Source: Methanobacteriota archaeon (GTDB taxonomy: Archaea > Thermoplasmatota > Poseidoniia > Poseidoniales > Thalassarchaeaceae). From it: a stretch of 64,000 nucleotides of DNA. This document shows positions 5,648 through 47,650 of the stretch, in pieces (the first letter of the stretch is position 1; each line of letters opens with the position of its first letter). Both the position numbers and the translations under genes were made by a program. Below the pieces are notes generated by a model. The model was not told the origin of the DNA and searched no databases. It worked only from the letters and a program-made list of their open reading frames with translations. The DNA lies in contig BPDA01000001.1 of assembly GCA_019654055.1 (NCBI GenBank), positions 17,938-81,937 on the forward strand. Direction: 5' to 3'.

Positions 5648-7013
5648 ATGATTAAGAGGGGTACTCCAGCAGGATTGCTGATGTCGGGTACGGCACCGTC
5701 GCGGGGCTTTGTCCCCGGCGCTGGCGTACCGGGGGTGAATAATCCCCCTTCCTTCGCCGATGCTGCCGACTCACTGCTCGAGCCAGCAGAGCGTCAGCAG
5801 GCCAGCGGCGAGTCCGGGCTGCTGCTGCTGGCTGATGGCACCAGCTACGAGGGCAGGCTGTTCGGTTCCGAGGGCATAGCGCAGGGTGAATTGGTGTTCA
5901 CCACCGGCATGTGCGGCTATCAAGAGAGCCTGACCGACCCGTCCTTCGCAGGACAGGTCCTGACATTCACGTGGCCCCTGCTGGGCAACTACGGCATACT
6001 CCCTGGAATCTCCGAGTCCTCAGGAGTCCACCCGCGTGGCGTCGTGTGCAAGGAGCTGATGAAGGTCCCCGACCACCGTGACTCGGTTGGCAGCGTGCAC
6101 GATTTCCTCGCAGCTCACGGCGTCCCCGGAATCGAGGGGGTCGATACACGCTCTCTTACTCGCAGGGTGCGCGAGCACGGAACAGTACTGTGCGTCTTCG
6201 GCCCCAAGGACCGGGCTGCCGAGATGAAGCAGACACTGAGGGAGATGACCCCACCCGACGCCGACGACCTAGTGGCCTCGGTGACCCGAGGGGATGCCGT
6301 ACTGCTCAACCCCGGAGGCTCAGGACGGCGACGGCAACCCACTGCCCCGACTCGCTGCACTGGATTGCGGAATCAAGCACAACATCCTGCGCGAGCTTTG
6401 CCAGCGCTTCGAGGTCGTCTGGTGCCCCGCTTCCATGCCCTTCGACGAGATCGTCTCCGAATGGCGGCCAGACGCCCTGTTCGCATCCAACGGCCCGGGC
6501 GACCCCGCCCATCCCGGCGATGCCACCTCGGCGCGAGAGTCGCTTGCAGCCGCCGTGCGCGCGGACATGCCGGTGATGGGAATCTGCCTCGGCCATCAAC
6601 TGATGGGCCTTGCAGCGGGCCTGCGCACCTACAAGTTGCGGTACGGCCACAGAGGGGCCAACCAGCCCGTGGTAGACCTGCGCACGGGCAAGGTCAACAT
6701 CACCAGCCAGAACCACGGCTTCGCCGTCGAGGACCCGGACAAGGGTATGCTAGCACCGCACCCCAGCGGAGCCCACTCCGACACCGGCGAGAACGCTCTG
6801 GAGGCGGACTTCGAGGTTCGCCACATCAACGCCAACGACCGAACCGTGGAAGGCCTCGACTTGGTCGGCAAGCCCGCCTTCACCATCCAGTTCCACCCCG
6901 AGGCCTGCCCTGGCCCCCACGACGCCTCGCCGCTGTTCGACCGCTTCTCCGAGATGGTGGCTGAGCATCTTGCAGGCGGCCAGAGGGCCGTGGTCAAGGG
7001 AGGTGATAGCTGA
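5648..7013 (+). CDS. carA: Carbamoyl-phosphate synthase small subunit, interrupted by an apparent 1-nt frameshift near 6303-6312
   Basis: N-domain in the frame of ORF 5579 (LLLLADGTSYEGRLFGSEGIAQGELVFTTGMCGYQESLTDPSFAGQVLTFTWPLLGNYG...). Glutamine amidotransferase domain in the frame of ORF 6294 (RLAALDCGIKHNILREL...SNGPGDP...GICLGHQLM...QFHPEA). The switch lies inside aaccccggaggctcag. There is a ~50-aa N-terminal extension. Confidence 0.8.
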
Positions 7014-9937
7014 TGCCGAGGCGCGAGGACATCAGTAAGGTGGTCATCTTGGGCAGCGGGCCGATTCGAATCGGCCAAGCAGCCGAGTTCGACTTCTCGG
7101 GCTCGCAGGCCTGCAGAGCCCTACGGGCGGACGGTTACGAGGTCGTCCTAATCAACTCCAACCCAGCGACCATACAGAACGACCCCGAGATGGCCGACCG
7201 GATCTACATCGAGCCGCTGCTGCCCGAGGTGGTCAAGCGCATAATGGAGCTTGAGAAGCCCGATGCTCTGCTGGCAGGGATGGGTGGGCAGACCGCGCTA
7301 AACATCGCCGCAGCCCTAGCCCATGACGGCTCTCTCGACGAACTGGGCGTCGAACTCATTGGCTGCAACCTCACGGCCATCGAGGAGGCTGAGGACCGCG
7401 ACCTGTTCAAGAAGGTCTGCGAGGAGATCGACCTGCCGGTGTGCAAGGCGATAGCCTGCGACTCGATAGAGCAGGTGCTGGAGTCCGTAGACCAACTCGG
7501 CGGATTTCCCCTACTAATCAGGCCGGCATTCACCCTCGGCGGATTGGGTGGAGGTACCGCGTACAACACCGGTGAACTGGTCGAGATAGCCAGTCAGGGC
7601 ATCCTGCACTCCGCGATAGGGCAGGTGCTGATCGAGGAGAGCATACTGGGCTGGCAGGAGCACGAGTATGAGGTGATGCGAGATGACGCCGACAACGCCA
7701 TCATCGTGTGCACCATGGAAAACCTCGACCCTATGGGTGTCCACACCGGCGAGTCCGTGGTGGTAGCCCCCCAGCAGACGCTCTCCGACCGGGACCACCA
7801 GGTCCTGCGCGACGCTGCGCTCAAGCTGATCAGGAGGCTGAACATCAGAGGAGGGTGCAACGTGCAGTTCGCAGTCGAGCAGTCCACCGGCGAGTACCGC
7901 GTCATCGAGGTCAACCCCCGAGTCTCCCGCTCCTCCGCCCTCGCATCGAAGGCCACCGGGTATCCGATCGCCCGGATGGCGGCCCTCATCGCAGTCGGTT
8001 ACACGCTCGATGAGCTGCCGAATCCAATAACCGGCGAGGGCACCACTGCCGCCTTTGAGCCGACCCTAGACTACTGTGTGGTCAAGATACCTCGCTGGCC
8101 CTTCGACAAGTTCCGCACAGCCGACCGCACGATCGGCACCTCGATGAAGTCCACCGGCGAAGTGATGGCGATAGGCCGCGGCTTCGAGGAGGCCTTCCTC
8201 AAGGCATGGTCGAGCCTTGAGTATGGACAGCCCCACCCCAGACCTCTGACCATGGCAGACGCATCAGGCGGCGAGTCGATGGATGAGCGAGCCTTCGAAC
8301 CACTCCCCGAGGCCCTTCTAGAGGATTGGCTTAGGGTACCTAGCGACAGGCGCATGGGAGCCCTGTTCGAGGCCTTCCGCCGTGGCTACACCACAGAGGA
8401 CGTGCGCGACATGACAGGAGGGGTCACGCGCTGGTTCCTGCACCGGTTTGAGAACATGGCCGCCATCGAGACCGAGATACGCGCGGCTGGCGAGATCGGC
8501 CTCAATCCGGCTGATGTGCCGGAGGAGGAGATGAGGATGTGGAAGGGCGCCGGCTTCACTGATTTACACATCGCCGACGCGCTGGCCGGCTTCCCAGCCA
8601 GCGGGTTCAAGCTCCTGTCCGAAGGCTCCGACGAGTTCGCAGTCACCCTAAGGCGCCACCAGCTCGGAGTGCATCCAGTGTTCAGGATGGTTGACTCGTG
8701 CGCAGCCGAGTTCGCTGCTGTCACCCCGTACTACTACACCACCTACGAGGGAGGCTCGGCATCGGGCGGAATCGACTACGTGCCCGGACTCGAAGAGTCA
8801 CTAAAGCAGAGGATTGTGGTCATCGGCTCGGGTCCGATACGGATAGGTCAGGGAATCGAATTCGACTACGGCTGCGTCCACGCGGTCGGCGCCATCCGCG
8901 AACTCGGCCACGAGGCCATCATCATCAACAACAACCCTGAAACCGTCTCCACTGATTTCGACACGAGTGACAGGCTATACTTCGACCCACTAACGCTCGA
9001 GGCCGTCTCCGAGATACTCCTCAGAGAGAGGGCCCACGGCATCCTGCTACAGTTCGGCGGGCAGACCGCCATCAACCTCGCACTACCCCTCTCGGACAGC
9101 CTCACACACCTCTCGACCCTCGGGCTTCACCTGGTCATGGAGGGCACTTCTCCCGATGCGATTGACGAGGCCAGCGACCGCGAGCGCTTCGAGGAGTTCG
9201 CCGCCCGAAATGGTCTGAGGATGCCGAGGGGGTCGACGGCGACCACGCCGGATGAGGTCAGGCAGGCCGCCCATGAGATCGGCTATCCTGTGTTGATTCG
9301 CCCCTCCTACGTATTGGGAGGAAGGGGGATGGAGATACTCTCGAACGACAAGCAGTTGGAGGCCTACATGGAGGAGGCGTTCCTCGCCCCCGACCGCCCG
9401 CTGCTGATTGACGAGTACCTCGGCAACGCGATTGAGCTTGACGTAGACGCGGTGTGCGACGGCGAGGAGGTGCTAGTGGGCGCCATAATGGAGCACCTCG
9501 AGGAGGCAGGTATACACTCAGGCGACTCGACCTGCTTTATCCCACCGCAGAACATCCCCGAGCACGTCCTCGCAGAGGTCGAGGATTGGACCAGAAAGAT
9601 CGGCATCGAACTAGGCATCAGGGGCTGCTACAACATCCAGTTCGCCATCCGCGATGAGGTCCTGCATGTGCTCGAGGTCAACCCGAGAGGCTCGCGCACC
9701 TTCCCGTTCGTGGCCAAGGCGACCGGTGTGCCGCTGGCTAGGATCGCCGCTAGGCTCGCGCTGGGAGAGAAGCTCAGCGAGCTCAACGTACCGGAGCCGC
9801 AGACCGATGCGGTCTGCGTCAAGGCACCCGTGTTCCCTTTCATCAAGTTGCGAGGCCTCGACCCAGCGCCTGGCCCGGAGATGAAGTCCACAGGTGAGGT
9901 GATGGGTTCGCATGCGAGGCCGGCCGCCCCTCCCTGA
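7013..9937 (+). CDS. carB: Carbamoyl-phosphate synthase large subunit (two ATP-grasp halves; C-terminal MGS-like allosteric domain missing from the intact ORF)
   Basis: 974-aa ORF MPRREDISKVVILGSGPIRIGQAAEFDFSGSQACRALRADGYEVVLINSNPATI..., the second half-repeat RIVVIGSGPIRIGQGIEFDYGCVHAV..., and both MKSTGEVM motifs. The ORF stops about 18 codons after the second MKSTGEVMG. carA and carB overlap ATGA-style at 7013. Confidence 0.9.
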   Translation: MPRREDISKVVILGSGPIRIGQAAEFDFSGSQACRALRADGYEVVLINSNPATIQNDPEMADRIYIEPLLPEVVKRIMELEKPDALLAGMGGQTALNIAAALAHDGSLDELGVELIGCNLTAIEEAEDRDLFKKVCEEIDLPVCKAIACDSIEQVLESVDQLGGFPLLIRPAFTLGGLGGGTAYNTGELVEIASQGILHSAIGQVLIEESILGWQEHEYEVMRDDADNAIIVCTMENLDPMGVHTGESVVVAPQQTLSDRDHQVLRDAALKLIRRLNIRGGCNVQFAVEQSTGEYRVIEVNPRVSRSSALASKATGYPIARMAALIAVGYTLDELPNPITGEGTTAAFEPTLDYCVVKIPRWPFDKFRTADRTIGTSMKSTGEVMAIGRGFEEAFLKAWSSLEYGQPHPRPLTMADASGGESMDERAFEPLPEALLEDWLRVPSDRRMGALFEAFRRGYTTEDVRDMTGGVTRWFLHRFENMAAIETEIRAAGEIGLNPADVPEEEMRMWKGAGFTDLHIADALAGFPASGFKLLSEGSDEFAVTLRRHQLGVHPVFRMVDSCAAEFAAVTPYYYTTYEGGSASGGIDYVPGLEESLKQRIVVIGSGPIRIGQGIEFDYGCVHAVGAIRELGHEAIIINNNPETVSTDFDTSDRLYFDPLTLEAVSEILLRERAHGILLQFGGQTAINLALPLSDSLTHLSTLGLHLVMEGTSPDAIDEASDRERFEEFAARNGLRMPRGSTATTPDEVRQAAHEIGYPVLIRPSYVLGGRGMEILSNDKQLEAYMEEAFLAPDRPLLIDEYLGNAIELDVDAVCDGEEVLVGAIMEHLEEAGIHSGDSTCFIPPQNIPEHVLAEVEDWTRKIGIELGIRGCYNIQFAIRDEVLHVLEVNPRGSRTFPFVAKATGVPLARIAARLALGEKLSELNVPEPQTDAVCVKAPVFPFIKLRGLDPAPGPEMKSTGEVMGSHARPAAPP

Positions 9938-10304
9938 AGGCACGACTCGCACGGAGTTCCCGTCCAGTCGAGGGGGGGTCTACATCACCGTCAAGGAGGG
10001 ACAAGCTAGCCATAATGACGAGGCCCGCGGGCTGCAGGAGATGGGTTCACCTCTATGCCACCAGGGGACAGCCCACGTGCTGCGCATGTAGGGGGCTGAG
10101 TAAAGACCTGCTACAGGTTTGCCGAGCGCCGTAGCCCGATGCCCTAGACCTATGGGGCAAGGCAAGATTCACCTCGTCATTAACACACCACGCTCGACCG
10201 GAGGGGCAGTACTAGATGGGAACATGATGCGCAGGCTCGCAGTCGAACTCAACATTCCTTCGTCACCACAATGGCAGGCGCTCACATGGAGGTCGAGGCG
10301 ATAG
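9938..10304 (+). pseudogene. Degenerate remnant of the carB C-terminal MGS-like domain, spread over three frames with in-frame TAG/TAA
   Basis: Frame fragments GGVYITVKEGQ..ARGLQEMG..HQGTAHVL and RPMGQGKIHLVINTPRSTGGAVLDGNMMRRLAVELNIP align to the CarB MGS-like domain (LLSVREGDK..KLLKQGFEL.ATHGTA..L ... [31 protein letters not shown]). They are separated by frame switches and by the stops TAG and TAA near 10088-10105. Confidence 0.5.
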
Positions 10305-10396
10305 ACGAGGCGATGAAGGGAATGCCAGAGCCAAGGCTCCTAGAGATAGGATCACTAGAATGAGAAAAGTGAAATTTACTCCTCAGAGCATATATA

Positions 10397-10404
10397 TTTA
10401 TATA
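10397..10404 (+). promoter_or_regulatory. Archaeal TATA box (tttatata) about 24 nt upstream of the ATG of the island HTH gene; implies a leaderless transcript
   Basis: gcatatatatttatatacccctcaagtgtcccccctATG; the spacing is typical of archaeal BRE/TATA-to-start distance. Confidence 0.35.
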
Positions 10405-10423
10405 CCCCTCAAGTGTCCCCCCT

Positions 10424-10657
10424 ATGACCCCTCAAAGGAGAGCAACTGAGGACGATGTCAAGGCTATCTTCTGTTATCGCGGAGCGGGTTTCTCTCTGGA
10501 TGAGACTGCTGACTATACCGGCCTCACTCGCCACACTGTTTCCTACCAATTGAGGAAGCTCAGGTACTCTGCAGAAGATGGCGGTATTTCTGAGGTTCTA
10601 CGTTCTCTGGAGTTAGTAGATAACTCTGAATTGATCAAAATGGAACTCAACTTCTAG
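10424..10657 (+). CDS. Small helix-turn-helix DNA-binding protein (77 aa)
   Basis: DDVKAIFCYRGAGFSLDETADYTGLTRHTVSYQLRKL has a classic HTH pattern (hydrophobic core, G turn, TxxTVxxxLxKL recognition helix). Confidence 0.5.
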   Translation: MTPQRRATEDDVKAIFCYRGAGFSLDETADYTGLTRHTVSYQLRKLRYSAEDGGISEVLRSLELVDNSELIKMELNF

Positions 10658-11472
10658 AGATTTCCAAACTTCTCATGGAGAATTTGACCTCCAGGATAGT
10701 TAAGCAATCTCGAGGATCCTTACGATGGTGTCGAACCAGATTTCTAGAGGGAGAGTGGGAAGAACCAGCAAAAATCGAATCGATGCCATTAGGTCATTTC
10801 TGTTAGTGAGATGTATGATATTGACGGCACCGAACTCCTGGTTATAGGTTCGATATTGGAAGACTCAAATCCATGATGGGTTTTCTTGAGAATAGGGGGC
10901 ACAGGGTATTTTCCTCATCACCGTTTCCACACACTCCCTTTCCCAGTACACACCGAGGAGTTTTGTGATGAACAGGGCAAGGAGATCATGGCTAGAAAGG
11001 AGAACTCAGGGAAGTTACTTGTTCTGGAGATCACGACCCATACTACAGGGAGGAACTCGCACAGCACGACACACTTGTCACAAATAAACCCTTGATTGCT
11101 ACCCCTCCCCTTTCCCCATTCAGGCCCAGATTTCTGGATTTAGTTGGGAGGGGCCAGAGCCCACTTTCAGCAACCTTCCCGAGTTAGAGAACCCCGTTGT
11201 GAAGGAAGAACCGGATGTCCCAAAACCGTGCTAGGGGAGTAGTCTATGCGATGTTATCTCAAAGGAATCCATCCACCAATCAAAAATTCATTTCAAAGTC
11301 GCTTCGGAAATTCTGGGGCTGAAGTGGGAAGAACAGGTCAAGTGGCCAAGAGGATGGGCCAAGCAACTCAAGCAGAAACTGCAACTCTCAGGTAAGACGT
11401 TCTCTATTCAGTTAAAGCATCTGATGGGGGATGAGATTACGATAAATAATTCAATAGTCAGGAGGATTATTA

Positions 11473-11964
11473 TTGACGATTAACCTCCAAGAATCATCCC
11501 AACAAATTGTCGTATCTATTGATGGGATGAGCGTCGCTTTCTCGCAACTCGCTAGCCAGAAATTCGACTGTGATCGGATTCGAGCATGTGTCCAATATTT
11601 CGAGGAACTTGATGTTGACATCAAAATCGCACTATTTATGCCCGCGTACATCGAGAATGAGGATTTCAGAAAGGAGATGAAATCTCGTAGTAATCTCGAT
11701 CTACATTTGGTAACGGGAATGAGGCCAAAATCTCCTCGAGATGACAAGTATACTCTAGGGGAGACCGTGCTTTCAGACGGTTTCTTCGTGTCAAACGACA
11801 AAAGAATGCATGAACATAGTAAAAATAAACTGGTAGACAGAGCTTGGATCTCAAGCAGGAGGATTGGGTTCCGTTTCGGGAAAGGCCCAGTCTTCATCCC
11901 AGGATTTCCGGAGCAATGGCACAAGGTGTGCGCAGAACTCCGATCTCCAAGGGATGGCAATTAG
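11473..11964 (+). CDS. Zc3h12a/NYN-like (PIN-related) ribonuclease domain protein
   Basis: TTG start 6 nt after GGAGGA. IVVSIDGMSVAF...IALFMPAYIE...LVTGMRPKSPRDDKYTL...DGFFVSNDKRMHE parallels the Regnase-1 NYN motifs (VVIDGSNVAMS / VFVPSW / LVFTPSRR..DD / DGIVVSND), including the candidate catalytic Asp residues. Confidence 0.65.
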   Translation: MTINLQESSQQIVVSIDGMSVAFSQLASQKFDCDRIRACVQYFEELDVDIKIALFMPAYIENEDFRKEMKSRSNLDLHLVTGMRPKSPRDDKYTLGETVLSDGFFVSNDKRMHEHSKNKLVDRAWISSRRIGFRFGKGPVFIPGFPEQWHKVCAELRSPRDGN

Positions 11965-11987
11965 GAGGTGATAGAATAGCCAAGAAA

Positions 11988-12104
11988 ATGAATAGAAGTG
12001 CAGCTGCACGAATTCAGCGTGCTGGAGCTAAGCGAGGCAGCGCTGGAAAGAAAAGCTTCTCCGCCAGAGCGCAGAGAGCGGCAGCGAAGAACTCCAGAAA
12101 GTGA
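11988..12104 (+). CDS. 38-aa Lys/Arg/Ala-rich basic peptide (MNRSAAARIQRAGAKRGSAGKKSFSARAQRAAAKNSRK)
   Basis: Preceded by AGGAGGTGA 16 nt upstream; immediately downstream of the NYN gene stop; resembles KGG-repeat-type small basic stress peptides. Below the ORF-track length cut-off. Confidence 0.35.
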   Translation: MNRSAAARIQRAGAKRGSAGKKSFSARAQRAAAKNSRK

Positions 12105-12137
12105 GTACGTGGCGCCCTAGGTATGGCGTAAAACTGC

Positions 12138-13698
12138 CTAAATTAGGGTTTCAAAATCAGGCCTTTCCATCTCTGCCATGATGGACGCCACGCGTGGCCC
12201 GTGGCTCTTTCCAAGGATGATCCAATACAGTGCGACATAGGCTTCACCCCCGTAAATTTCCCGGGCTTCGGTTGCAACCAATCTGATACAATCACCAATT
12301 GCCTTGGCAGTCCACTCACAGTCACTGATGGCACTGCTCAATGAAGAAAGAAACGCATTTTGCTCATCGGTCAGGTTGGTGCGTACTTCTTCACTAACAC
12401 TCGATTGCACCTCAACCTTGGCCGCATCCGGGAAGTGCGGGCCATCGACCCAGTTCCGCATCCTGCGCAACCTACCAGCAAGAGGTGCCCCGGGATCCCC
12501 CTCTAGGTGCCCCGACCTGCGCAGGGAGCCCACACGTCATCATCGCTCGACTTAATCTGCGCGAGCTTTGGCGAGATGCCGGAAGGAAACCCGCAATAAA
12601 ATTCAGAGGGTTTTGACCCCCCTTGACCTGACTGAGCCGAGTGCCCCAATTGGGTGTCCCGACCCACCTGCGGGCGCCGAAAACCCCTTCTTCCGACCCC
12701 CGGGGAGGCCCCGCCCCAAACCGCTCGTACTCGTCAGCGGTCGTGAACAGGGCGGGCCCCCGTATCGAAGTCGATGTGGCGCCCCACCTTGCTCCTGCGA
12801 TGACGTAACGCATAATCTCAGGGGGAACTAGGGCTAGGGCGTCCATAGGCCCCACAGTCAACCCCTTCGAGCTCGACATCGGCCCCATTCCCTTAGCTGG
12901 ATCCACTCGTAGACCATCTTGTGAGGCGGCTCGCTGCCCAGCATCTCGCAGTTTGGTATCCCGGTGTCGTAGCTGCCCCCGGCGGCACCGTGGCCCTTTT
13001 CCCCCGGGCTCGCAGGTGATGCCGTGGATGCCCCACTTGGCGGCCCAGTCGATTCTCCAGGGAATTTTCCCTGGCAGTCCTGATGCCCAAATTCCCTCGA
13101 GCCTTGCTGTCGACCCAGTGCACGTGCGGATGCTCGTATCCGGTTACGCTGACCCCGTCGATCTGCCGTCGGAGCCGAGGGGGTTGTACGGAAACCAGTC
13201 TTCGGGCCCCTTCCCTCCGGAGACCTCCTCGATGACTCGACGAATTTCGTCCCTCTGCTCAATCGCCGAGTGGGTCTTATCGGCGAAGGCACCGCTCTCG
13301 TAGGTCTCGTGGTTCATCACGACCTCTGGCTCGACCCCTATCTGCTTGAGCGCTGCTAGAAAGGGAGCGAGGAAGTGGTCAGCGTAGCTTCCGCCATCCT
13401 GACCCGGCTCCCCGTCCGGCCCTGGTGCCGGGATGTATGCCAGTGGGTGGCCGATGTACTGCTCGTAGGAGGGCGAGAGGAAGTCGTAGACCCTGCGCAG
13501 GGGGTCCATCGAGTCGACGATGAAGATGTAGCGCGAACCCCTTCCCGCGTCTAGGCAGGCGCGGTGAATCATCTCGGCAGTCAGTATCTCGCGCAGGTGG
13601 CCGACGTGGAACTCGCCAGAGGGAGTTATTCCCGAGGCGATGACCTGTGATTCGCCACGCACCCTCAGAGTCTGCGCGGTGTGGTCCGCCCAGTGCAT
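12138..13698 (-). pseudogene. lysK: Class I lysyl-tRNA synthetase, fragmented by an in-frame TAA and at least five frameshifts
   Basis: Intact N-terminal 184 aa with HIGH motif (SGITPSGEFHVGHLREILTAEMIHRA). Later conserved blocks GKIPWRIDWAAKWGIHGITCEPGGKG, HGAAGGSYDTG...EPPHKMVYEWIQL, KGMGPMSSSKGLTVGPMDALALVPPEIMRYVIA and the C-terminal EIYGGEAYVALYWIILGKSHGPRVASIMA lie in alternating frames. TAA sits right after DWFPYNPLGSDGRSTGSA. Confidence 0.75.
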
Positions 13699-13707
13699 TC
13701 TACTCCC

Positions 13708-14290
13708 TCAGACTGAAACTACTCTGACCAGTCCACGGAGGGGCACGCCCTCGAGCTCGTTGTTGTTCGACTTGTTGGCGAGCACCATACAGAGTTTGAC
13801 GTCAGCTCCCGCTGACCTGAGGTTCCTGATGGTCTTGCTCATAGTGGTTCCAGAGGACAATACGTCGTCGACCACGACCACGCTCTTGCCGGCCACGCCA
13901 GCGAAGACCTCGGAGAGGTGGCCGCCCTCTCCTCGCTAATGCTCCTGCTGATTGATAGATCGAGGTCCATCTGCCCCGCTATGGCCTGAGCGAAGGCGAT
14001 TCCGTTGAGGCTGATGCCCACTATCGCATCCACCTCATCACCAATCTCCTCCTCGATGATGTCACGAAGATGTAGGAGGCGGCCTCTATCCTTCCGGCCT
14101 TGACCGCGATTGATCTCCAGCCTACCTGGATGTCCGAGGGGCGGTCCTCGGTGGCGACCCCGCTCGAGGACAGCCACTGGATGGTAGTCTGGGACAGCGA
14201 GAGCTCGTCGGCTATCTGCTGGGTGTTCAGACCCTTGTTGCGAAAAGTCTCGACCTTGCCTCGCAACTCCTCTATACTGAGTGGCATCAA
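13708..14290 (-). CDS. GfcR/PyrE-like regulator (N-terminal HTH + phosphoribosyltransferase domain), split over three frames
   Basis: HTH piece (LNTQQIADELSLSQTTIQWLSS, ORF 14021..14290). PRT N-part (VDAIVGISLNGIAFAQAIAGQMDLDLSISRS, frame of ORF 13839..14300). PRT binding motif (KSVVVVDDVLSSGTTMSKTIRNLRSAGADV, ORF 13708..13896). Confidence 0.6.
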
Positions 14291-35476: not shown

Positions 35477-35562
35477 TGGTGCAGAGGGCAGGATTCGAAC
35501 CTGCGAAGCGCTAAGCACCGGAGTTTAAGTCCGGCCCCTTTGACCAACTCGGGTACCTCTGC
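35477..35562 (-). tRNA. tRNA-Leu (anticodon UAA), long variable arm, CCA encoded
   Basis: Reverse complement GCAGAGGTACCCGAGTTGGTCAAAGGGGCCGGACTTAAACTCCGGTGCTTAGCGCTTCGCAGGTTCGAATCCTGCCCTCTGCACCA. It has a 7-bp acceptor stem, a D-arm, an anticodon stem CCGGA/TCCGG with loop CTTAAAC, a 16-nt variable arm, a GGTTCGAATCC T-loop and a terminal CCA. Confidence 0.85.
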
Positions 35563-35679: not shown

Positions 35680-38613
35680 GTGCAGGCTAGCAGCACGACG
35701 AATAGCGGTCGCGGCCATTTCAGGCTGGCCATTGCCTTGACTATGGTGATTCTGGCCCCCATCTGCCTATCCCTGGCCCCTGCTTCGGAATTGCGCTCGA
35801 TTGAGCCCATGTCAGCCGACGACGACGTCGAATTGAAGCTCTACACCCTGTACATCTCCTCGCAGAACACCTCGGCCGGCGGTGACGGTCACATCACCAC
35901 GGAGGTCCCCGAGTCAGGGGGCCAGGACAGCTCAAGTGCTCTGGACAGCGAAGTCGAGTTCCGCTCCAGCGACATGCTCTCCTCGCTAATCGTCTACGGC
36001 AGGTCACAGCACGGCAGCTCTAGTTCGTACTATCTCCCACTGGACATGTTCCTTCGGGCGACGGGCCCGAGTGGCTCCACGGTCGAGTGGTCGATTAGGC
36101 TGAAGGCCGGCGGCTCCGAGATCGGAACAGCGTCCTGGGATACCGACGCCTGCACGCAGAGCTTCACGAACAGCTGCAGCTTCGACCACGAGGAGTTCGA
36201 AATTGACCTCGGTGGCGACCAGTCGTTCACGGTCTCGAAGGATGAGAGAATGGAGATCACAGTCAGTGCCGAGATGTCGGGCTGTGACGGCGGCTCGATT
36301 CCAGGCGGCTCCAGTTGCGAGGCCGAAGTGGCTTGGAACGAGATTGACGACGAGAACAACAGGTACTCCCAACTTGAGGTTGAGGCGAATGCGATATCCA
36401 ATAGCATCGTCGTCCTCCAACGCGAGGGCGCCGAGCTGGCCGAGGGCGCCGAACTCGACTGGTACCCCAACGACATCCTCTCAGAGCGTGCCATGCAGTT
36501 CACCTTCGATGTCAAGAGTTCCTTCGGGCGCTACGACATCGAGTCTACCCGTCTGATTATGAGGGACCCGGACGGAGTCTACCGAATCGACCACATCATC
36601 AACGAGGATGATGAGGACATCGAGGACACCAGCCAAGGCATCTTTGGCGAGTACATCTGGACCTACCCGAGCGGCCTGCCTGCCGGGGAGTACTCGGTCG
36701 AACTGGAGATCACCGATATCCAGGGTAACGCCTTCTTGATTGAGCACGACCCGGTCGAGATGCACCAATGGGGAGTCTCGCTCAACCACCGCCTGAACAA
36801 GCTGACCGAGTACATCGCCCCCGGCGAGACTACTGCGATTCCCTTGCAGCTGGTGCACAAGGGGGACTCCACCAAGTCGATGGAGGTTGAGATGGAGGTT
36901 CTGACGAACCTAGGTAGCTCGTGGATTCTCGAGTTCGACTCACCGGGCGGCTACACTCTCAACGCTGGCGGCGATATACTCAACCCAATCCTCACACTCA
37001 CCGCGCCCGACGACCTGACAGGAACTCCCGAGGGCATAGAGATTAGGGCCGTGGCCGAGGCCGAGGTGGACAGCGTGCTGCAGGTGGTCGACCAGGACAT
37101 TCTGCAACTCGACCTCGAGAAGATCGACGTATACCAACCCCCAGAGGTCTCGGTCTGGAACGAGGAGCACGACGTCCAGATAGCGAACTCGACACGACCC
37201 GACGACTTCGACCAGACCGTCCCGAGGTACGTGGAGTATGAGGAGTTCACCCCGTTCCTGCTGGAGATATTCAACACTGGTTTCGATGCCGACACGTTCA
37301 GGGTCGATGTACTGCAGAGGGCCAAGTCGATTATCCAGATATACGACAACGACACCGGTGAGAGAATTCTCGAGGACGAGGGTGACGGGACCTTCCACAC
37401 AGCTCTTCTGGAGCGCCACTCGACGCAGGTACTACTGTTCAACGTCAAACCGTCCTCGGACAGGGACGACCCCGACATCGGCGAGATCGAGGTCGAGGTA
37501 ATCAGCAATGGCAACTCGTCCCTGCGTACGACGGTGGTCTTCACGATACAGAGGACCTTCGGCATCTACGCCGAGGTTTCGCAGGACTGCGACGGCTCCC
37601 CTCTGGGTCACATCAGGGTTTCACTTTGCTCACCCTCTTCTGGTAACGCTGTGGTCGACCTCAGGGTGAGGATAACCAACAGTATGACCAGCGGAGAGTC
37701 TGCCAGCTGGTGGAGGATACAGAACCCGGCGTCTCTAGAGGAGAACACAGACAGGGACCCGGCCTACGGACAGTGGCAGTTCATGGTGCTGGACGAGGAC
37801 GGCGACGCTGTTCCGAGGGTGTCCCTCGGTCCCGGCGACTTCACCGAGGTCTTCGTCACCGTGACCCTGACTAGCCAGGTTGTCGCAGGTAACCACACCG
37901 TCTACCTACGAATAATCGAGGACATAGATGACGACAATCCGAGGTACTTCGACCTCCCGATGGTGTTCGAGGTCGAGGCGGGTAATCCTAATCTGCAGAT
38001 AGTACAGGTCTCCCCCAACTACGAGCTGCTGCCCGGTGAGGCCTACTCGATCCAACTCAAGGTCAAGAACAACGGCAATGGACCGTTGACCGTACTTCTG
38101 GATGCAGAGGTCGAGGAGTCTGGCTGGAGCGTCGACATCGAGGGCCCCTCTGGATCCCCACTGATAGAGCTAGAAGCCTTCGAGGAGGCCACCTTCAACC
38201 TCGAGGTCAGCGTCCCTGATTCGGCGAACAACGGCGAACAGGTCCCCGTCCAGATTACCGCCACGCCCTTCGATACCGAACAGAGCTGGCCCGAGCAGTA
38301 CACCGCCGAGGCCACAGTGACGATGACAGTGGGAATCTCATCGCTGCTTGACATCCTGATCAACGAGATAACTCACCCACGCCTCTCCACCATGGCAATC
38401 AGCTTGGTCGGCATCCTGTTGCTGTTCGCTGGAATCCAGAGCAGGATGAACCGTCGCAGGTGGACTGCGCATCTGGCTTACCTTGAGTCACTGGGGGGCG
38501 ACGAAGATGAAGAGGGGGACGACGACGAGGACCCCGATTTACCCGCTCCAGTTACCTCCGTAGAGGAGGATGAGTCGGACGATTACGAGGACGACGAGAT
38601 CGAACTCGTCTGA
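35680..38613 (+). CDS. Large acidic cell-surface protein (977 aa; N-terminal signal anchor, C-terminal TM helix, poly-acidic cytoplasmic tail)
   Basis: N-terminal hydrophobic FRLAIALTMVILAPICLSLAPA; many NxS/T sequons; C-terminal LSTMAISLVGILLLFAGIQS followed by GGDEDEEGDDDEDPD...DDYEDDEIELV. No enzymatic domain recognised. Confidence 0.5.
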   Translation: MQASSTTNSGRGHFRLAIALTMVILAPICLSLAPASELRSIEPMSADDDVELKLYTLYISSQNTSAGGDGHITTEVPESGGQDSSSALDSEVEFRSSDMLSSLIVYGRSQHGSSSSYYLPLDMFLRATGPSGSTVEWSIRLKAGGSEIGTASWDTDACTQSFTNSCSFDHEEFEIDLGGDQSFTVSKDERMEITVSAEMSGCDGGSIPGGSSCEAEVAWNEIDDENNRYSQLEVEANAISNSIVVLQREGAELAEGAELDWYPNDILSERAMQFTFDVKSSFGRYDIESTRLIMRDPDGVYRIDHIINEDDEDIEDTSQGIFGEYIWTYPSGLPAGEYSVELEITDIQGNAFLIEHDPVEMHQWGVSLNHRLNKLTEYIAPGETTAIPLQLVHKGDSTKSMEVEMEVLTNLGSSWILEFDSPGGYTLNAGGDILNPILTLTAPDDLTGTPEGIEIRAVAEAEVDSVLQVVDQDILQLDLEKIDVYQPPEVSVWNEEHDVQIANSTRPDDFDQTVPRYVEYEEFTPFLLEIFNTGFDADTFRVDVLQRAKSIIQIYDNDTGERILEDEGDGTFHTALLERHSTQVLLFNVKPSSDRDDPDIGEIEVEVISNGNSSLRTTVVFTIQRTFGIYAEVSQDCDGSPLGHIRVSLCSPSSGNAVVDLRVRITNSMTSGESASWWRIQNPASLEENTDRDPAYGQWQFMVLDEDGDAVPRVSLGPGDFTEVFVTVTLTSQVVAGNHTVYLRIIEDIDDDNPRYFDLPMVFEVEAGNPNLQIVQVSPNYELLPGEAYSIQLKVKNNGNGPLTVLLDAEVEESGWSVDIEGPSGSPLIELEAFEEATFNLEVSVPDSANNGEQVPVQITATPFDTEQSWPEQYTAEATVTMTVGISSLLDILINEITHPRLSTMAISLVGILLLFAGIQSRMNRRRWTAHLAYLESLGGDEDEEGDDDEDPDLPAPVTSVEEDESDDYEDDEIELV

Positions 38614-38695
38614 GCCGGTGTGAATCGGTGTCCGAACGGCGCTCCATTCGTCTTAAGACCCGTACTTTCTGCCGTAGGCAGCAGAAGGCCTGAGC

Positions 38696-41600
38696 ATGCG
38701 CGCGGTTTCTGCACCCACATCGCTCTACGAGACGTCGCGCAAGCGCCGGTCGGCCCTGCTGTTCAGCGCCCTGCTACTACTGTCCTCCTACGCCGCCCTC
38801 GAGTTCGGTGCCTGGGAGGCCCGGGCCTCGACCGATGCCGATGGTGACGGCCTGACCTACGGGCTTGAGTTCTACATCAACACCCAGCCTCAGGATTGGG
38901 ACTCCGACAACGACGGCCTTCCGGACGGTTGGGAGTGGCAGTACGGCTTGGACCCCCTATCAGCCACGGGGGACAACGGCTCTACGGGAGACCCCGACGG
39001 GGACGCCTTCACCAACCTCAACGAGTACCAGTACGGCATACCGACAGGCTGGGATTCATCCTCTACCCCATCTGTACTCGACAACGGGGTCTGGTGGAAT
39101 GGTACCGTCCCCACGAGGAACTGGGACGAGGAGAGTGCCATGCAGATCATTCAGGGCACCGGCTCGGACGGTGCTGACGAGGACCCGATGGGCAATATCT
39201 GCAACGACCAGATGGACAACGACAAGGATGGCCTCGTCGACACATTCGACAACGACGGTGACGGCGACGCCGACTGTAGCAGCGACGACGATGACGGCGA
39301 CGGGCTAATCGATGAGGATCCCGATGGATGGGACACCGACGGGGATGGCATGCCGGACGCTTGGGAGGTCGCCAACAACCTCGACCCGACCTCGAACTCA
39401 AACATGGACGGTGCGTACGGCGACCCCGACGGAGACGGATTAGGAAACCTGTGGGAGTACGTCAACCCCGCCTGGGGGACTCGAAACGGCTCGACCAACC
39501 CACCCACGCAATACTTCCGACCGGGTCCATTCAACATGACCGGCACCGAGTCCCCATGCAACCCCGTGCTCGGCTTGGGCCCGGGCGGCTGCGTCATATT
39601 CACCGCCGAGGTCGACGGCATCACCCAGACCGACCCGAACAACAACGACACCGACGGCGACGGTCTGAATGACTCGTATGAGGCATTCGTGCTTCTCACC
39701 GACCCGACCGCCGTCGACACCGACGGCGACGGAATCTGGGACGGCGTCGAGGTGAACGGCTCGTATGGCGACCCTCCTCAAGCCAGTGACCCACGCAACA
39801 ACAACACCGACGGCGATCAGTTCGATGACGGCGAGGAGGACGTCAACGGCAATGGCATAGTGGACCTCGGAGAGACCGATCCGACTCGAATAGAGGACGC
39901 CGGCGACATGGACAACGACGGCATAGACAACTGGGAAGAGAACATGACATGCACGCTGTGGAACGTCTCCGACACCGATGGCGGAGGAATCAACGACGGC
40001 GACGAGTTGACGCTAGCTCATTCGACCGATCCATGCGTCTCCACGGAGGATGTCGTCAAGCAGATTATGGGGTGGGATTCATCGAACTCGATTCTCACCC
40101 TGAACACCACCACCGGGCTCGACCCGAACCCGGTTGACTGGAGGCAGCAGGGCGCTGCGATGGCCTACTATGTATCCTCGAATGGCAGCCTCACCGGCTT
40201 CAGGTACGAGTCTATCATCTCCGACACTTTACGCAATGTCGACACCGACAGACCGAGCGATGCCGACACAGTGGTGTTCCTCAACTTCTCGTGGTGCTGG
40301 AACGCCACCGCCGGCGCGATTAATGAGCCACACTGTGACGACGACTACTTCGATACCGATGGTGACGGCCTCGCCGACTGGGAGGAAGGCCTCGGGACAT
40401 GGGGCTACCTGTCTCTGCCCAACATGTCGGACACCGACGGCGATGGGGTGGACGACCTCAACGAGATACTCAACGAGACCGACCCGAGCATCGCCTGCCA
40501 CAACCTACTCGATAGCGACGGCGACGGTCTCAACAATTACTTCGAGAACACCACCGGGTGTCCTTTGATTTACGGTCTGGGAGGCAATGGCACCATCGAC
40601 ACCTACTACACCATGTGGAACGTCACAGACACCGACAATGGCGGTGTGGCCGACGGCAGGAGTACCTCGACGGGACCAACCCGCAGAACAACTCGGCCGA
40701 CGACCTGAACCCCGTCGACACCGACGGCGACGGTATCCCCGACACCATCGAGCAGCAGATTGGGACCGACTGGAGAGACCCCGACACCGACGGAGGGGGA
40801 GTGCCCGACGGGCAGGAGTGCCCCTCCAGAGTACTGGGACCTCGGCTGCCTAGATGCCGAGGGCAACCCGTGGGACCCCACCGACGATATCGACGAGAAC
40901 ATGCTGTACTTCGTCGCCGAGAACACCTCAGCCGGTGTGGACCCGGATCTGAGGCACTACTGGAGGTGGCATACCTACGACTACTACACTGGCGTGTCAT
41001 GGGGAGTCAACACCACGTTGGTCGGTTACACTCAGATGTTATTCGACTGGTCCACCACACAGGGAGTAGCCGACTCCAGCTTCTGGCAGGAGAACGAATC
41101 GCTGGATGGACCATACAGTACGACGAAGACGGCATCTTAGGTCCGGGTGACGAGCTGATAGCGCCCTACAACGCTGTGAACTTCACCAGTTGGATGGACA
41201 ACAACGCGGGCTGAACTTCTCGAACTTCACCCGCGACATCCTCATCGATCAATCGACCGTGGACACCCTGTATGTGACAGCCCCACAGGTCTTCTTCGGC
41301 CCGCAGATTATAGCCAACTCCACCTCGTTTTCAGGAAGCAGCTACGCCTACGATCTCCCCGACGATTTCCTCGGCAAGAGCAGTTATTTCGTCGAAGAAG
41401 TAACTCAGACGGTAATCAACGAATCCGGGGCTTTCAGCGCATGGGATAAGGTGCTGGCGATCCAGGACTACCTGATCAACGGCAACGCCAGCACCAACTT
41501 CACTCTGAACTACGACGGCTCGGGGAGGGTCGACGGACTCGATGAGGACAGCGATATCGCCCACTGGATACTCAACGGCTCGCAGGAGGGCAGCTGCGAC

Positions 41601-44600
41601 GAGTTCACGACTGTGTTCTCCGTCATGCTCAGGCTCGCGGGAATCCCAACGAGAAAGGTCACCGGGTTCGCTGGAGGGACCTGGACGGGCAAGTCGTTCG
41701 AGGTTTACGGAAAGGACTTCACCAGGTGGGTCGAGGTCCACTTGGAGACCAATCAGAACCAAGGCGGCCTCGACATGGGCTGGATCCCGTTCGAGGCCTG
41801 CCCGCCGATGGCCGAACTCGAAGTTGTGGATTTGGATTGGGGGCCGACATGGGTGGAGAGGAACCTGTCCACCGGCGACATCTGGCTTAACGGGACCCTC
41901 CAGTTCGCCGACAACGAGACGGCCGCTGAAAACGTCACGATGTACCTCTACCTAGTCAGGTCCAACGATACTGGGGACGTGCCGGGTAGCGCGGCTCTGT
42001 CCGAGCACCTTGTTGACAACGGCACCACCGATGCGAACGGCAGCTTCAGTCTGAACGGCACCCCCGAGAAGGTCATCAACCCCGGATTCGGCTCGCTCGT
42101 TATCCACGTCTTCGAGAAAGGCTACGTCGGCTCGCAAGGCATCACCTTCACTTGGCGTCTGAACATCTCGGACGACGCCAATCTGAGCATCGGCGAGCCG
42201 CCCCCTCCTGACGAGCCGATGCTCGGCGCCGGCGTCGAGACTCTGGTCACCGGCGACATGTCATGGGCCAGCACCCCGTACAACGACCCATCCGAGTTAG
42301 ACAGCCTACAGGTCATCCTGAACTACACCACCGCGAGCGACGGCCCAATTAGCCTGATTGCAGATGTCGGGGCAGGGGGTTACTACGAGTTCTCCCTGAG
42401 TATCAATGAATCCGAACCGCTCGGCCTGATCAACGCCTCGTTGAACTTCTATGGTTGGCACGAGGAGGACCTCAACAACGCCAGCACCCCTTCCTACCAC
42501 CTCAGGCCGGCCACGGTGCCGTTCATGTTCAACATCACCCCCGCCCCTAACCTCACCGTAACGCTCGAGGGAGAGGGGGCCAACAACAGCATCCTCGAAG
42601 TTGACTCGCAGATCTACCTCAACGGCACCGTGCTGAGCAGGGGGCCGAACTCCGAGGCGCTGAACGGGACGTTAATTCTCAAGATGCGGCGTGCCAACAC
42701 CAACGGCCCTTTCACGACGCTCACCTCGTGGTACCTGAACGACAGCAACTGGACATCCTCTCCCGGCGAGTTCTCGGTGAGTTGGCTGTTCTCTGCCGTC
42801 CGTGTGCCGCTGCCTGCCGGCGAGGTCCAAGTCAAGCTGGAGTTTGACTCGGAAGGCCTCTTTGCCAATGACCAAGTCACATTCTCGGACGAGTATGGAA
42901 TACGCAGCTACGTCAACTTCGCCTACACCCTGCAACCCCTGCCTCGAGGCAATCTGGCAGTGGTCGAGGTCGTACTCACCGACCACACCAACACCTCCTT
43001 GGCGGATTTCCTCGGTACCTACATTCTGGAGCTCAACGGGACCGAGGAGTGGAACATCACCGATCCATCAGAGCCTAGGCTGGATGTGGCATTCACCCCG
43101 CCTTGGGAGACCTTCGCCGGCGACTACAGCTGGGTTTTGAACTTCTCGGGCTCGACCTGGCTGCAACCAGCTGAGGCAGTCGACGTGGTACGAATCCAGG
43201 GCAGGGCCAATGCCACCGTTCAACTGGGGCTCGAATGGACGCCCAGAGGGGCAACCAACTGGGTGGCCGGGTTCGCCAACGATATCTTCCACGACATCCC
43301 GGTACTAGGCAACAACTCCTCTGTGGTGGTGCAGTTGCTGGTGCCGTCCACCCTGCCCCCGGCGCCTGACGGCTCCCCGGCCCCGCCGGTAATCCACAGA
43401 TTGGCTTCCGGGTGGATTGACAACGCGACGGGGGCTACAACCTCAGCTTCGAGATGCCCTCGGGTGTAGGCTCCGGGGTGTATGACCTAAGGGCCGTACT
43501 CGACTTCAACCAGAACCCACCCTCCGGCGGAGTCTTCTTCAAGGTCCAGGACGATGCCGTATACGCCGCCGGCATACAAACTGAGTTCGTGGTAGATGCC
43601 GCTCCGAGCGCACTGATAGTGGTAGCCGGCTCGACCATGATAGTCAATGCCACCATCACCGACGTCGAGGACAACTCTCTGCTGCAGGGTGTGCTCGCTG
43701 ACATCTACTTCGATTGGGGCGGCGCTTCCGAGGCAATCATGGAGAACCAGACCACCGGGTCCGACGGTGTCGCGGCGTTCAGTCCGGTGATTCCCGCCGA
43801 TACGGCGCCCGGGTACTACACCATCCGGGTGCACGCACCGGACGACAAGTCGGACAACCTGACCGTCGCTGACGCAGGCAGATGGCTTGGCAACGACAGC
43901 ATGGTCAACCTCACGGTGCAGGTATCTAGCTTCGTCGAGATAGACAGCATACCCGTTGAGGTCACCGCAGGGCAGGCGTTCGCCATAAGTGGCAGGGTGA
44001 TTGACGCGGTCGACGCCAACAGGACCGTCAATGGGCCGATGGCAGTGGAGGTGTTCTTCCTGGCCGACTCCAGTGAGACTCTAGTGCAGAGCGCCACCAC
44101 GACCAGCAACGGCTCGTTCGCAATCTCAGTACCCACGGACCCATTGGGTGACGGCGTCACCAGCGGACTCAAGACCGTGGTGGTCAGCGTCATCAACGGC
44201 AGCACGCCGTTCTACCTAACTGGCACAGGAAACGCTTCGATACTCGTGCGTGGGGTGACCCAGTTCGTCGACAAGAGCCCAATCATCAACACCGTCGCGG
44301 ACCGTGGTTCATCGATCAACTTCGGGGCCCGACTGGTGGAGTCGAGCGACAATGACAGGCAGATCGGCAACGCGACCATAGGGGCGAAGTTCCACGACAC
44401 GTGGCTGCCAGCGATTCAGACGAACGGTGTGGGCGTGGTGAACTTCTCGTTCGCTATACCGCATTCTCATCCGCTTGGACTGATAGCCATCACGCTGTTC
44501 TTCAACGGCTCATCCACTCTGCACTCCACCACCACCACCATCACCACCATCACTGTCAGATCCCCTACCATCCTCACCGTCGACCCAATCACGGACAACC

Positions 44601-47600: not shown

Positions 47601-47650
47601 AAGAGGTCCCTGAGAGAGACTCCTATGTGGTCGACGATGGAATCAGGTGA
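38696..47650 (+). CDS. Giant (~2980 aa) cell-surface protein: signal peptide, thrombospondin type 3-like Ca-binding repeats, transglutaminase-like core, many Ig-like/sequon-rich repeats, TM anchor, DUF4129-like cytoplasmic tail; at least five apparent frameshifts (40.6-41.2 kb and ~43.43 kb)
   Basis: TSP3 repeats DTDGDGMPDAWE, DPDGDGLGNLWE, DTDGDGLNDSYE, DTDGDGIWDGVE, DTDGDGLADWEE, DSDGDGLNNYFE, DTDGDGIPDTIE. Transglutaminase core GSCDEFTTVFSVMLRLAGIPTRKVTGFAGG...FTRWVEVHL...GWIPFEA (Cys/His/Asp). C-terminal LLAALLTLALLIGAAMLMRRRKQ plus a tail resembling DUF4129. ORFs 38696-40708, 40558-41214, 40760-41140, 41190-43469 and 43454-47650 join into one reading frame if single-nt indels are allowed. 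Confidence 0.6.

Follow-up and report, generated by a model that had tools for sequence, protein, structure and literature searches.

An AT-rich three-gene cassette with a predicted Zc3h12a-type NYN ribonuclease occupies a replaceable carB–lysK slot in Marine Group II archaea

What is an AT-rich block of 1.8 kb, lying between two housekeeping genes, doing in the high-GC chromosome of a marine archaeon? This question is raised by a 64,000-nt stretch of DNA (here called the window; positions 17,938 to 81,937 of contig BPDA01000001.1, assembly GCA_019654055.1, of a member of the Thalassarchaeaceae), in which such a block extends over positions 10364..12137 (not strand-specific), from the stop codon of carB (10361-10363) to that of lysK (12138-12140). 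This block represents one allele of an AT-rich operon of three genes that occupies a replaceable carB–lysK slot in high-GC Poseidoniales (Marine Group II). Its genes encode a helix-turn-helix (HTH) protein with a divergent NYN domain (gene 1), a predicted NYN endoribonuclease (gene 2) and a 38-aa basic peptide (gene 3), and the operon is tentatively read here as a conflict-type module, i.e. one with a function in defence or abortive infection or as a toxin–antitoxin-like addiction system.

The GC (guanine plus cytosine) content of the block was 0.465, compared with a mean of 0.603 (standard deviation 0.022, minimum 0.547; z=-6.2) for other segments of equal length (n=587), and its tetranucleotide distance amounted to 0.572 versus 0.238±0.038 (maximum 0.388) elsewhere in the window. 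The block is compositionally foreign, as the original prediction, an earlier reading of the same DNA, had stated and as both comparisons across the window confirm. Furthermore, in relatives with other alleles, homology to the window was shown to end at position 10356 and to be resumed at 12133. The flanking genes, carB on the forward and lysK on the reverse strand, converge on the block from either side, and the same convergent arrangement was observed with different cargo in other Poseidoniales, in agreement with the earlier view of the block as inserted cargo. That view had envisaged relatives with an empty site, yet no truly empty carB–lysK site was found, the closest being that of reference genome L022, in which the gap holds one 123-aa open reading frame (ORF). 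The Poseidoniales reference genomes L022, L023 and L025 do not carry the cassette. In L025 (11189-12457), the gap was seen to encode a conserved ~420-aa protein, in which an N-terminal zinc ribbon is followed by a coiled-coil/charged middle and a conserved C-terminus, and in L023 (11902-13164) the same zinc-ribbon protein together with a CPBP-like membrane protein.

At least five gene-1 alleles were found directly after carB, namely the window type, P0014 (contigs L109-L112), P0015 (L115), P0017 (L116) and P0019 (L113). The other alleles are 27-37% identical to the window type, whereas the C-terminal stretch of carB is 87-97% identical across contigs holding differing gene-1 alleles. In L115, gene 1 alone has been replaced: 95% nucleotide identity to the window starts exactly at the start codon of gene 2 (window 11474), and the products of gene 2 (95.7% at the aa level) and gene 3 (100%) are retained together with lysK (94%). 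In L109-L112 (L109 1426-2876), gene 2 encodes a 417-aa NYN, coiled-coil and KH-like protein in the same slot, while gene 3 encodes a 59-aa N/R/G-rich peptide (pep59; isoelectric point [pI] 12) with three ARNQRSNS.NPNN repeats, which have AR.QR....N in common with the 38-aa peptide (pep38). As judged from these alignments, strains exchange alleles and single genes through homologous recombination, which takes place in the conserved flanks and at gene junctions and involves no integrase or att site.

The original prediction had itself raised the possibility of a chimeric assembly at the junctions, which was rejected because contigs L001, L102 and L115 each independently run from carB through the cassette into lysK. 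A recent insertion with target-site duplication was likewise rejected, the borders being the two stop codons with differing alleles between conserved flanks. A repeat search around the island revealed no meaningful flanking repeats and no att-like boundaries, no tRNA genes are located within 20 kb of it, an Rfam scan of 9.5-13 kb returned no match, and the matches of a promoter/terminator scan were not above chance. None of the marks of a mobile element or prophage (integrase or transposase, flanking direct repeats, tRNA target and viral homologues) was found for the cassette.

Gene 2 (11473..11964, + strand) encodes a predicted stand-alone 163-aa Zc3h12a-type NYN endoribonuclease (here RNase; PF11977) and overlaps the gene-1 stop by 11 nt. 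Its TTG start codon (11473) lies 6 nt past a GGAGGA sequence (11461-11466), as had been described. Comparison with PF11977 (RNase_Zc3h12a) yielded E=5.4e-12 and 46.1 bits, relative to a gathering cut-off of 23 bits, with residues 13-148 aligned to profile positions 4-146 of 154. In a seven-sequence alignment of the RNase family, D17, D90, D91 and N108-D109 were invariant, and the regions of D17, D90, D91 and D109 align to IDGSNVA, DDRF and SND of ZC3H12C. The active site of MCPIP1 is formed by D141, D225, D226, D244 and D248 (PMC5499597); D17, D90, D91 and D109 are the equivalents of the first four, so that four of the five active-site aspartates are kept, and the profile search supports the initial assignment of a Zc3h12a/NYN RNase with conserved catalytic Asp residues. 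Conversely, the notion that this type of RNase is foreign to archaea did not hold: the domain is not new to this group, because PF11977 had 23 archaeal members, next to 154 bacterial members with function listed as unknown, as early as 2017 (PMC5499597). The protein is identical to a 163-aa RNase encoded on 13 other short marine-metagenome contigs, and a stop/start overlap of 4-11 nt between genes 1 and 2 recurs in L001, L011, L115 and L117.

When intact, gene 1 (10424..11483, + strand) encodes 355 aa, in which an HTH is followed by a long, acidic linker helix, a divergent NYN domain of the Zc3h12a type and, at the C-terminus, a winged helix. In the window, only a 77-aa N-terminal ORF (10424-10657) is open, and its HTH matches are weak, all being under the Pfam cut-offs that are attained in relatives. 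Contig L001 is 96% identical to the window over 10307-12832, in an alignment with 27 gap openings, and carries a single intact 355-aa ORF that begins at the HTH start (10424) and whose stop lies in an 11-nt overlap with the beginning of the RNase gene. Relative to L001, gene 1 of the window contains 13 indel events of 1, 2 or 4 nt, none of which is a multiple of 3. Seven more copies of the window-type allele, full-length or partial (L002-L005, L007, L008 and L101; 97-100% aa identity), were also shown to be frame-intact. The original prediction had described a leaderless HTH gene with a TATA box, followed by ~800 nt without a convincing ORF. The TATA-box-like element TTTATATA (10397..10404, + strand; read from the sequence, 19 nt 5' of the gene-1 ATG, in keeping with a leaderless transcript) and the ORF are indeed present, but this ORF is the N-terminus of the 355-aa gene and not a separate small gene, since the intact copies have one ORF. 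Similarly, the '800 nt without ORF' is the frameshifted body of gene 1, because the ORF of L001 is intact through it and the window copy has the 13 indels. Most of the other alleles that were inspected (L011, L102, L103, L104, L109, L115 and L117) have a comparable A/T-rich TATA-like element ~20-30 nt 5' of the start.

The domain composition of gene 1 emerged from a 15-sequence alignment that includes distant members (A3). Conserved in this alignment are an HTH at the N-terminus (GFS.DEIA..TGLSR.TVSYQL.KLK), a central block in which the Asp of VIDA.NV is invariant and [ST]N[DE] near-invariant, and a block at the C-terminus (WPKGW..QLK..L.LSGK.F). PF11977 was matched by six of the 15 members (best 1e-11), hhalign of A3 against the RNase family gave E=5e-5 across 123 columns, and the top PDB matches of the A3 profile were KHNYN and ZC3H12B/C. 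When the narrow gene-1 family (A1) was compared with the RNase family, hhalign returned no significant match (probability 0.5%), the comparison becoming informative once distant members were added. On the basis of these profile matches, the central block is assigned to the NYN domains with a Zc3h12a/PRORP-type fold. D123 is invariant and DD205/206 are present in this domain, without the full set of catalytic Asp residues, as the equivalent of MCPIP1 D244 is Asn in window-type gene 1 (TNN for SND) and D, N or A within the clade. In the P0019 allele, gene 1 has retained canonical NYN motifs. Since the D244 equivalent is lost, the NYN domain of window-type gene 1 is probably catalytically impaired. 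The protein is acidic, with a pI of 4.9.

The interrupted reading frames of the window invite a different explanation, in which the block is a remnant, functionless and in decay, of a mobile element such as a virus or plasmid and the frameshifts reflect real pseudogenisation that reaches the flanks. Such decay would be compatible with the low GC of the block, with the 13 frameshifting indels of gene 1 and the frameshifts in neighbouring genes, and with the deletion bias of the indels, and the flanking genes had indeed been described at the outset as degraded exactly at the borders of the island. However, the indels are specific to the window, occur both inside and outside the island and leave the 3' ends clean. 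In carB, which encodes the large subunit of carbamoyl-phosphate synthase (7013..10363, + strand; collinear with the 1121-aa carB of L022), no indels were found at 8082-9926, ~10 window-specific indels were located at 9927-10258, and the last ~100 nt were clean. The lysK gene, encoding a class I lysyl-tRNA synthetase (12138..13698, - strand; Anticodon_2 match and homology to the 525-aa lysK of L022), is split across three frames, with 13 window-specific indel events in mid-gene (12524-13162) and its last ~385 nt free of them. A cluster of ~25 window-specific events at 9927-11262 corresponds to the last 430 nt of carB plus gene 1, whereas just two length differences from relatives, both in-frame (6 nt and 3 nt), were present at 11263-12523; compared with intact relatives, more window-specific indels were found at 13929, 14063 and 14757. 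Also split across frames are carA (~6.3 kb), a phosphoribosyltransferase-like gene (13.7-14.3 kb) and a gene at 19.8-20.5 kb, while the ORFs at 0.9-3.5 kb resemble frameshift fusions; 17-64 kb otherwise seems largely clean, going by its long, tightly packed ORFs.

In relatives, the genes that are frameshifted in the window are all intact, with lysK uninterrupted to the contig ends in L001 and L002 and full-length (526 aa) in L109. As lysK is the only lysyl-tRNA synthetase gene seen in the window and the window-specific indels are mostly single-base deletions, the frameshifts probably represent local consensus (sequence) errors. Under genuine decay, lysK and carB would both be dead, which is implausible in a living cell. 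Moreover, all eight other copies of the allele that cover gene 1 in full or in part, from independent assemblies, are free of frameshifts, the ratio of non-synonymous to synonymous substitution rates (dN/dS) is well under 1 for all three genes, and neither integrase, tRNA and flanking repeat nor a viral-contig or PHROG match was found. A decaying remnant is consequently considered very improbable. Window 11284-12248, spanning the RNase and peptide genes, was observed to be 100% identical to L001, next to differences of ~2.5% in gene 1 and ~8.5% in lysK, plus indels; this identity is due either to recent recombination between strains or to a mosaic assembly consensus.

Gene 3 (11988..12104, + strand) encodes the 38-aa K/R/A-rich peptide MNRSAAARIQRAGAKRGSAGKKSFSARAQRAAAKNSRK, which has a pI of 12.0, an internal AR.QRA..AK repeat (AARIQRAGAK / SARAQRAAAK) and weak SMP/LEA-D34 likeness. 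A 38-aa ORF was found after the RNase gene in every cassette contig reaching that far, with 95-100% identity to the window peptide, and all copies are 92-100% identical to one another. Because its nucleotide changes are mostly synonymous and its dN/dS (calculated for genes 1-3 by the Nei-Gojobori method) is 0.01-0.06, the lowest of the three genes, at dS up to 1.3, the ORF is by its codon-level pattern a real peptide gene under very strong purifying selection. The early suggestion of a tiny basic peptide gene was thus well founded, and the peptide represents a clear example of a strongly selected micro-protein overlooked by gene callers. The Shine-Dalgarno sequence that had been assigned to it, AGGAGGTGA, could not be upheld, as it lies 18 nt 5' of the ATG and encodes the RNase C-terminus 'EEVI' in homologues. 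Homologous RNase ORFs extend 2-6 codons further, to 'EEVI' or 'EVIE', and the RNase stop of the window (11962-11964) is a TAG within the conserved GGAGGTGAT in the window and L102, with GAG in most homologues (cf. L011 2335-2355). The presumed ribosome-binding site GGAGGTGA is therefore seen as a remnant of RNase coding sequence.

In comparisons where the peptide is 92-100% identical, the RNase is 63-75% identical (dN/dS 0.09-0.33) and gene 1 is 49-72% identical (dN/dS 0.14-0.52). These values bear on the model put forward in the original prediction, in which a small HTH regulator accompanies an NYN RNase toxin and the 38-aa peptide serves as its immunity protein or antitoxin. RNase and peptide are indeed co-inherited, also where gene 1 has been exchanged: the 163-aa NYN protein is always accompanied by pep38, and the NYN and KH-like protein by another basic peptide. 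Toxin–antitoxin pairs with reversed gene order also exist. However, co-variation with the target would be expected of a cognate inhibitor, and the conservation of the peptide is decoupled from the divergence of the RNase, which argues against a co-evolving immunity protein. Furthermore, the peptide is extremely basic next to a near-neutral RNase, intact copies have no small HTH gene of its own kind apart from gene 1, and a pep59-like ORF also follows an HTH and winged-helix gene without NYN domain in L118, the available sequence of which contains no RNase gene. Altogether, this model appears improbable. The broader reading of the cassette as a toxin/immunity or abortive-infection module is still plausible. 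In L118 (800-1000), this pep59-like ORF was located after a gene for a 183-aa protein with an HTH and the C-terminal domain but no NYN domain, and an ATA is found at the position of the GTG start of L109; the ORF may be non-functional or have a non-canonical start.

The sole database relative of the peptide, obtained in a search with the peptide padded to 42 aa, was the 67-aa P0039, which matches PF04927 (SMP, LEA D-34) with 19.9 bits (E=9.5e-4), under the cut-off of 22. The 38-aa peptide itself returned no match to PF04927 and none to PDB. In L114 (1-994), P0039 was observed directly 3' of a gene with weak SMODS and nucleotidyltransferase matches, both near the Pfam thresholds; this single instance is a possible hint that such peptides accompany conflict enzymes acting on nucleotides or nucleic acids. 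Past the peptide stop codon, a conserved ~45-nt 3' element (12102..12146, + strand) contains a 5-bp hairpin (R-CGCC / GGCG-U) with an 8-nt loop. This element accompanies the cassette into other genomic contexts, as was shown by aligning five of them, and a structural role of the hairpin is unproven, because the pair changes are one-sided only and none is compensatory.

The other contexts in which the cassette was found include a position with a folC-like gene on one side and a dCMP deaminase gene on the other (L104), one 3' of a gene for a Lys-rich membrane protein (L103) and one after carB without lysK (L011). In L117, a distant pair of gene 1 and RNase is located between a photolyase gene and an AAA_18 gene, where the small peptide was not seen. 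Cassette genes were shown to have a GC content of 0.39-0.48 in all high-GC hosts, compared with 0.57-0.65 for their flanks. More distantly, marine or sediment contigs L106 (9286-10567) and L122 (2761-3934) encode an 84-86-aa protein with an HTH and a C-terminal hydrophobic helix, which is possibly membrane-tethered, and an overlapping NYN gene. The NYN protein has flanking C2H2 zinc fingers in L106 and the C-terminal domain of the cassette in L122. Since these distant contigs pair an HTH protein with an overlapping NYN gene, the linkage of HTH and NYN predates the cassette.

A conflict-type module, in which gene 1 represents the variable regulator or specificity subunit, is proposed because a PIN-like RNase is combined with a DNA-binding partner, because allelic diversity is extreme between near-identical flanks and because GC is low. 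We assign this reading a probability of about 40%. Several results weigh against it. Not a single family of the PADLOC-DB 2.0 hidden Markov models was retrieved at E≤1 for any of the three proteins, PHROGs gave nothing beyond weak HTH matches, no NCBIfam family was matched by the cassette proteins, scans of IMG/VR viral contigs with the RNase and gene-1 alignments revealed no relatives, and no recognisable defence genes were found beside the cassette in any context examined. The fifth acidic residue of MCPIP1, D248, corresponds to an invariant His (H113), followed by E114, in gene 2, and the pI of the RNase (7.7) is near-neutral, unlike that of typical basic toxins. At 355 aa, gene 1 is far bigger than a classical antitoxin, and its family is tiny, with six clusters in an index of 5.8 billion proteins and 27 representatives among 1.84 billion proteins. 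Since the cassette proteins of L102 are 72-76% identical to the window type in the same slot, next to a lysK that is 87% identical, the cassette looks vertically inherited in one slot in several lineages and is not obviously mobile in the short term. Finally, RNase cleavage, toxicity and binding roles of the cassette proteins are predictions from sequence.

An alternative is a non-conflict operon for RNA processing or post-transcriptional regulation, in which the NYN RNase, an RNA-binding paralogue and a basic RNA-binding peptide mature or degrade host transcripts, the low GC and diversity being due to a slot of the flexible genome. Purifying selection acts on all three genes, the cassette of L102 has been kept in the same slot despite the divergence of its proteins, defence libraries gave no matches, the neighbours are housekeeping genes, and the eukaryotic relatives Regnase-1 and PRORP are regulatory or processing enzymes (PMC5499597). 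Yet the distribution of the cassette is patchy, with absence from all three reference genomes, the family has merely the 27 representatives given above, and AT-richness is maintained in every host context. Moreover, alleles of 27-37% identity between near-identical flanks, swapped precisely at a gene junction, would be unusual for housekeeping functions. RNA processing is rated as unlikely, although it remains a serious rival to the conflict-type module.

If the cassette is a conflict-type module, the operon would be transcribed from the TATA box as a leaderless mRNA and autoregulated by the HTH of gene 1. Regnase-1 NYN domains work as head-to-tail dimers. The impaired NYN and winged-helix domains of gene 1 may bind RNA or the gene-2 enzyme, and such binding would set the specificity of the RNase or restrain it, until a trigger such as viral infection or stress causes the RNase to cut cellular or viral RNA. 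The invariant basic peptide would serve as a cofactor or modulator, with RNA or the ribosome as its highly conserved partner, and not as a co-evolving immunity protein, while gene 1 would constitute the swappable, fast-evolving specificity component.

A more far-reaching proposal, which we consider unlikely at present, is that the cassette represents an undescribed three-component conflict system of Marine Group II, composed of a swappable sensor and regulator (the nuclease-impaired NYN paralogue, with its domains for binding DNA and RNA), a Regnase/KHNYN-type NYN RNase as effector and an ultra-conserved, basic SMP-like peptide acting on a conserved RNA or ribosomal site. Balancing selection would maintain its multiple alleles at one fixed position in the chromosome, and the eukaryotic antiviral RNases Regnase-1, KHNYN and N4BP1 would have a prokaryotic counterpart, and possibly their antecedent, in this system. 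No description of the cassette was found in the literature, nor any work joining Zc3h12a to a phage defence system in bacteria. As a compact, strain-variable operon centred on a Regnase/KHNYN-type RNase, the cassette would extend the prokaryotic roots of the RNases of eukaryotic innate immunity by an archaeal system and provide a testable role for prokaryotic PF11977 members, and its three parts are of a size suited to heterologous tests. Marine Group II archaea rank with the most abundant uncultured archaea of the surface ocean and, to our knowledge, their conflict or immunity systems have hardly been described.

The host setting of the block is that of an ordinary Poseidoniales chromosome. 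The best matches of the carB C-terminus are metagenome-assembled genomes (MAGs) of Candidatus Poseidoniales (84%, 81%, 74%, 71% and 70% identity), and 2.3-21 kb of the window is collinear with MAG TMED173 (L022). The remainder of the window encodes a helicase, a PEP-utilising enzyme, an ABC permease and large surface proteins. The latter were observed as a run of very large secreted or surface-type proteins at 35680-47650 (977, 670, 759 and 1398 aa), with NEW3, TSP3, transglutaminase, Big_3_5 and DUF4129 domains, adjoining a tRNA-Leu(TAA) at 35477-35562, which is the sole tRNA gene of the window.

When compared with known systems, the peptide resembles SMP/LEA D-34 (PF04927) in that P0039 matches the C-terminal two-thirds of the profile, with the pattern AAARIQ.A.AK....G..K.SF..RAQRAAAKN, although the peptide family has a single short motif where SMP proteins have tandem SMP domains. 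We know of no biochemical function established for SMP itself. The cassette also shares features with the replacement-type flexible genomic islands of marine prokaryotes, a concept drawn from population genomics of Alteromonas, Haloquadratum and others, namely highly divergent cargo at a fixed position between core genes, exchange by homologous recombination and atypical composition. It differs from them in being very small (1.8 kb, three genes) and in that its alleles have a common three-part architecture, as opposed to unrelated glycosylation or surface genes.

Among toxin–antitoxin systems, type II VapBC is similar in having a co-directional gene for a PIN-like RNase immediately 3' of, and overlapping, the gene for an acidic protein with a DNA-binding domain, and the cassette is likewise AT-rich, patchy and present in several genomic contexts. 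However, the nuclease of the cassette is of the NYN/PRORP type and not of the VapC type, its upstream protein is 355 aa with NYN-like and winged-helix domains of its own, versus an antitoxin of 70-90 aa, and a third, ultra-conserved peptide gene is present; toxicity and neutralisation are putative for the cassette. Unlike MARF1/limkain-b1 (NYN plus LOTUS/OST-HTH) and PRORP, gene 1 is without PPR or RRM domains and has an N-terminal HTH of DNA-binding type; a LOTUS label for gene 1 would be one of many winged-helix matches and is not established.

In its catalytic domain, gene 2 resembles the eukaryotic Zc3h12a/Regnase-1 family (ZC3H12B-D, KHNYN and N4BP1; PF11977), whose D141, D225, D226 and D244 equivalents are kept in gene 2. 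Gene 2 differs in its His at the D248 position and in being without CCCH zinc finger, UBA or CUE domains, and here the RNase is part of an archaeal operon with a paralogous HTH-fused partner and a small peptide. The L109 allele is reminiscent of KHNYN in joining NYN to a KH-like domain, in the order NYN-then-KH that is the reverse of KHNYN, and several eukaryotic members of this family restrict viruses (PMC5499597).

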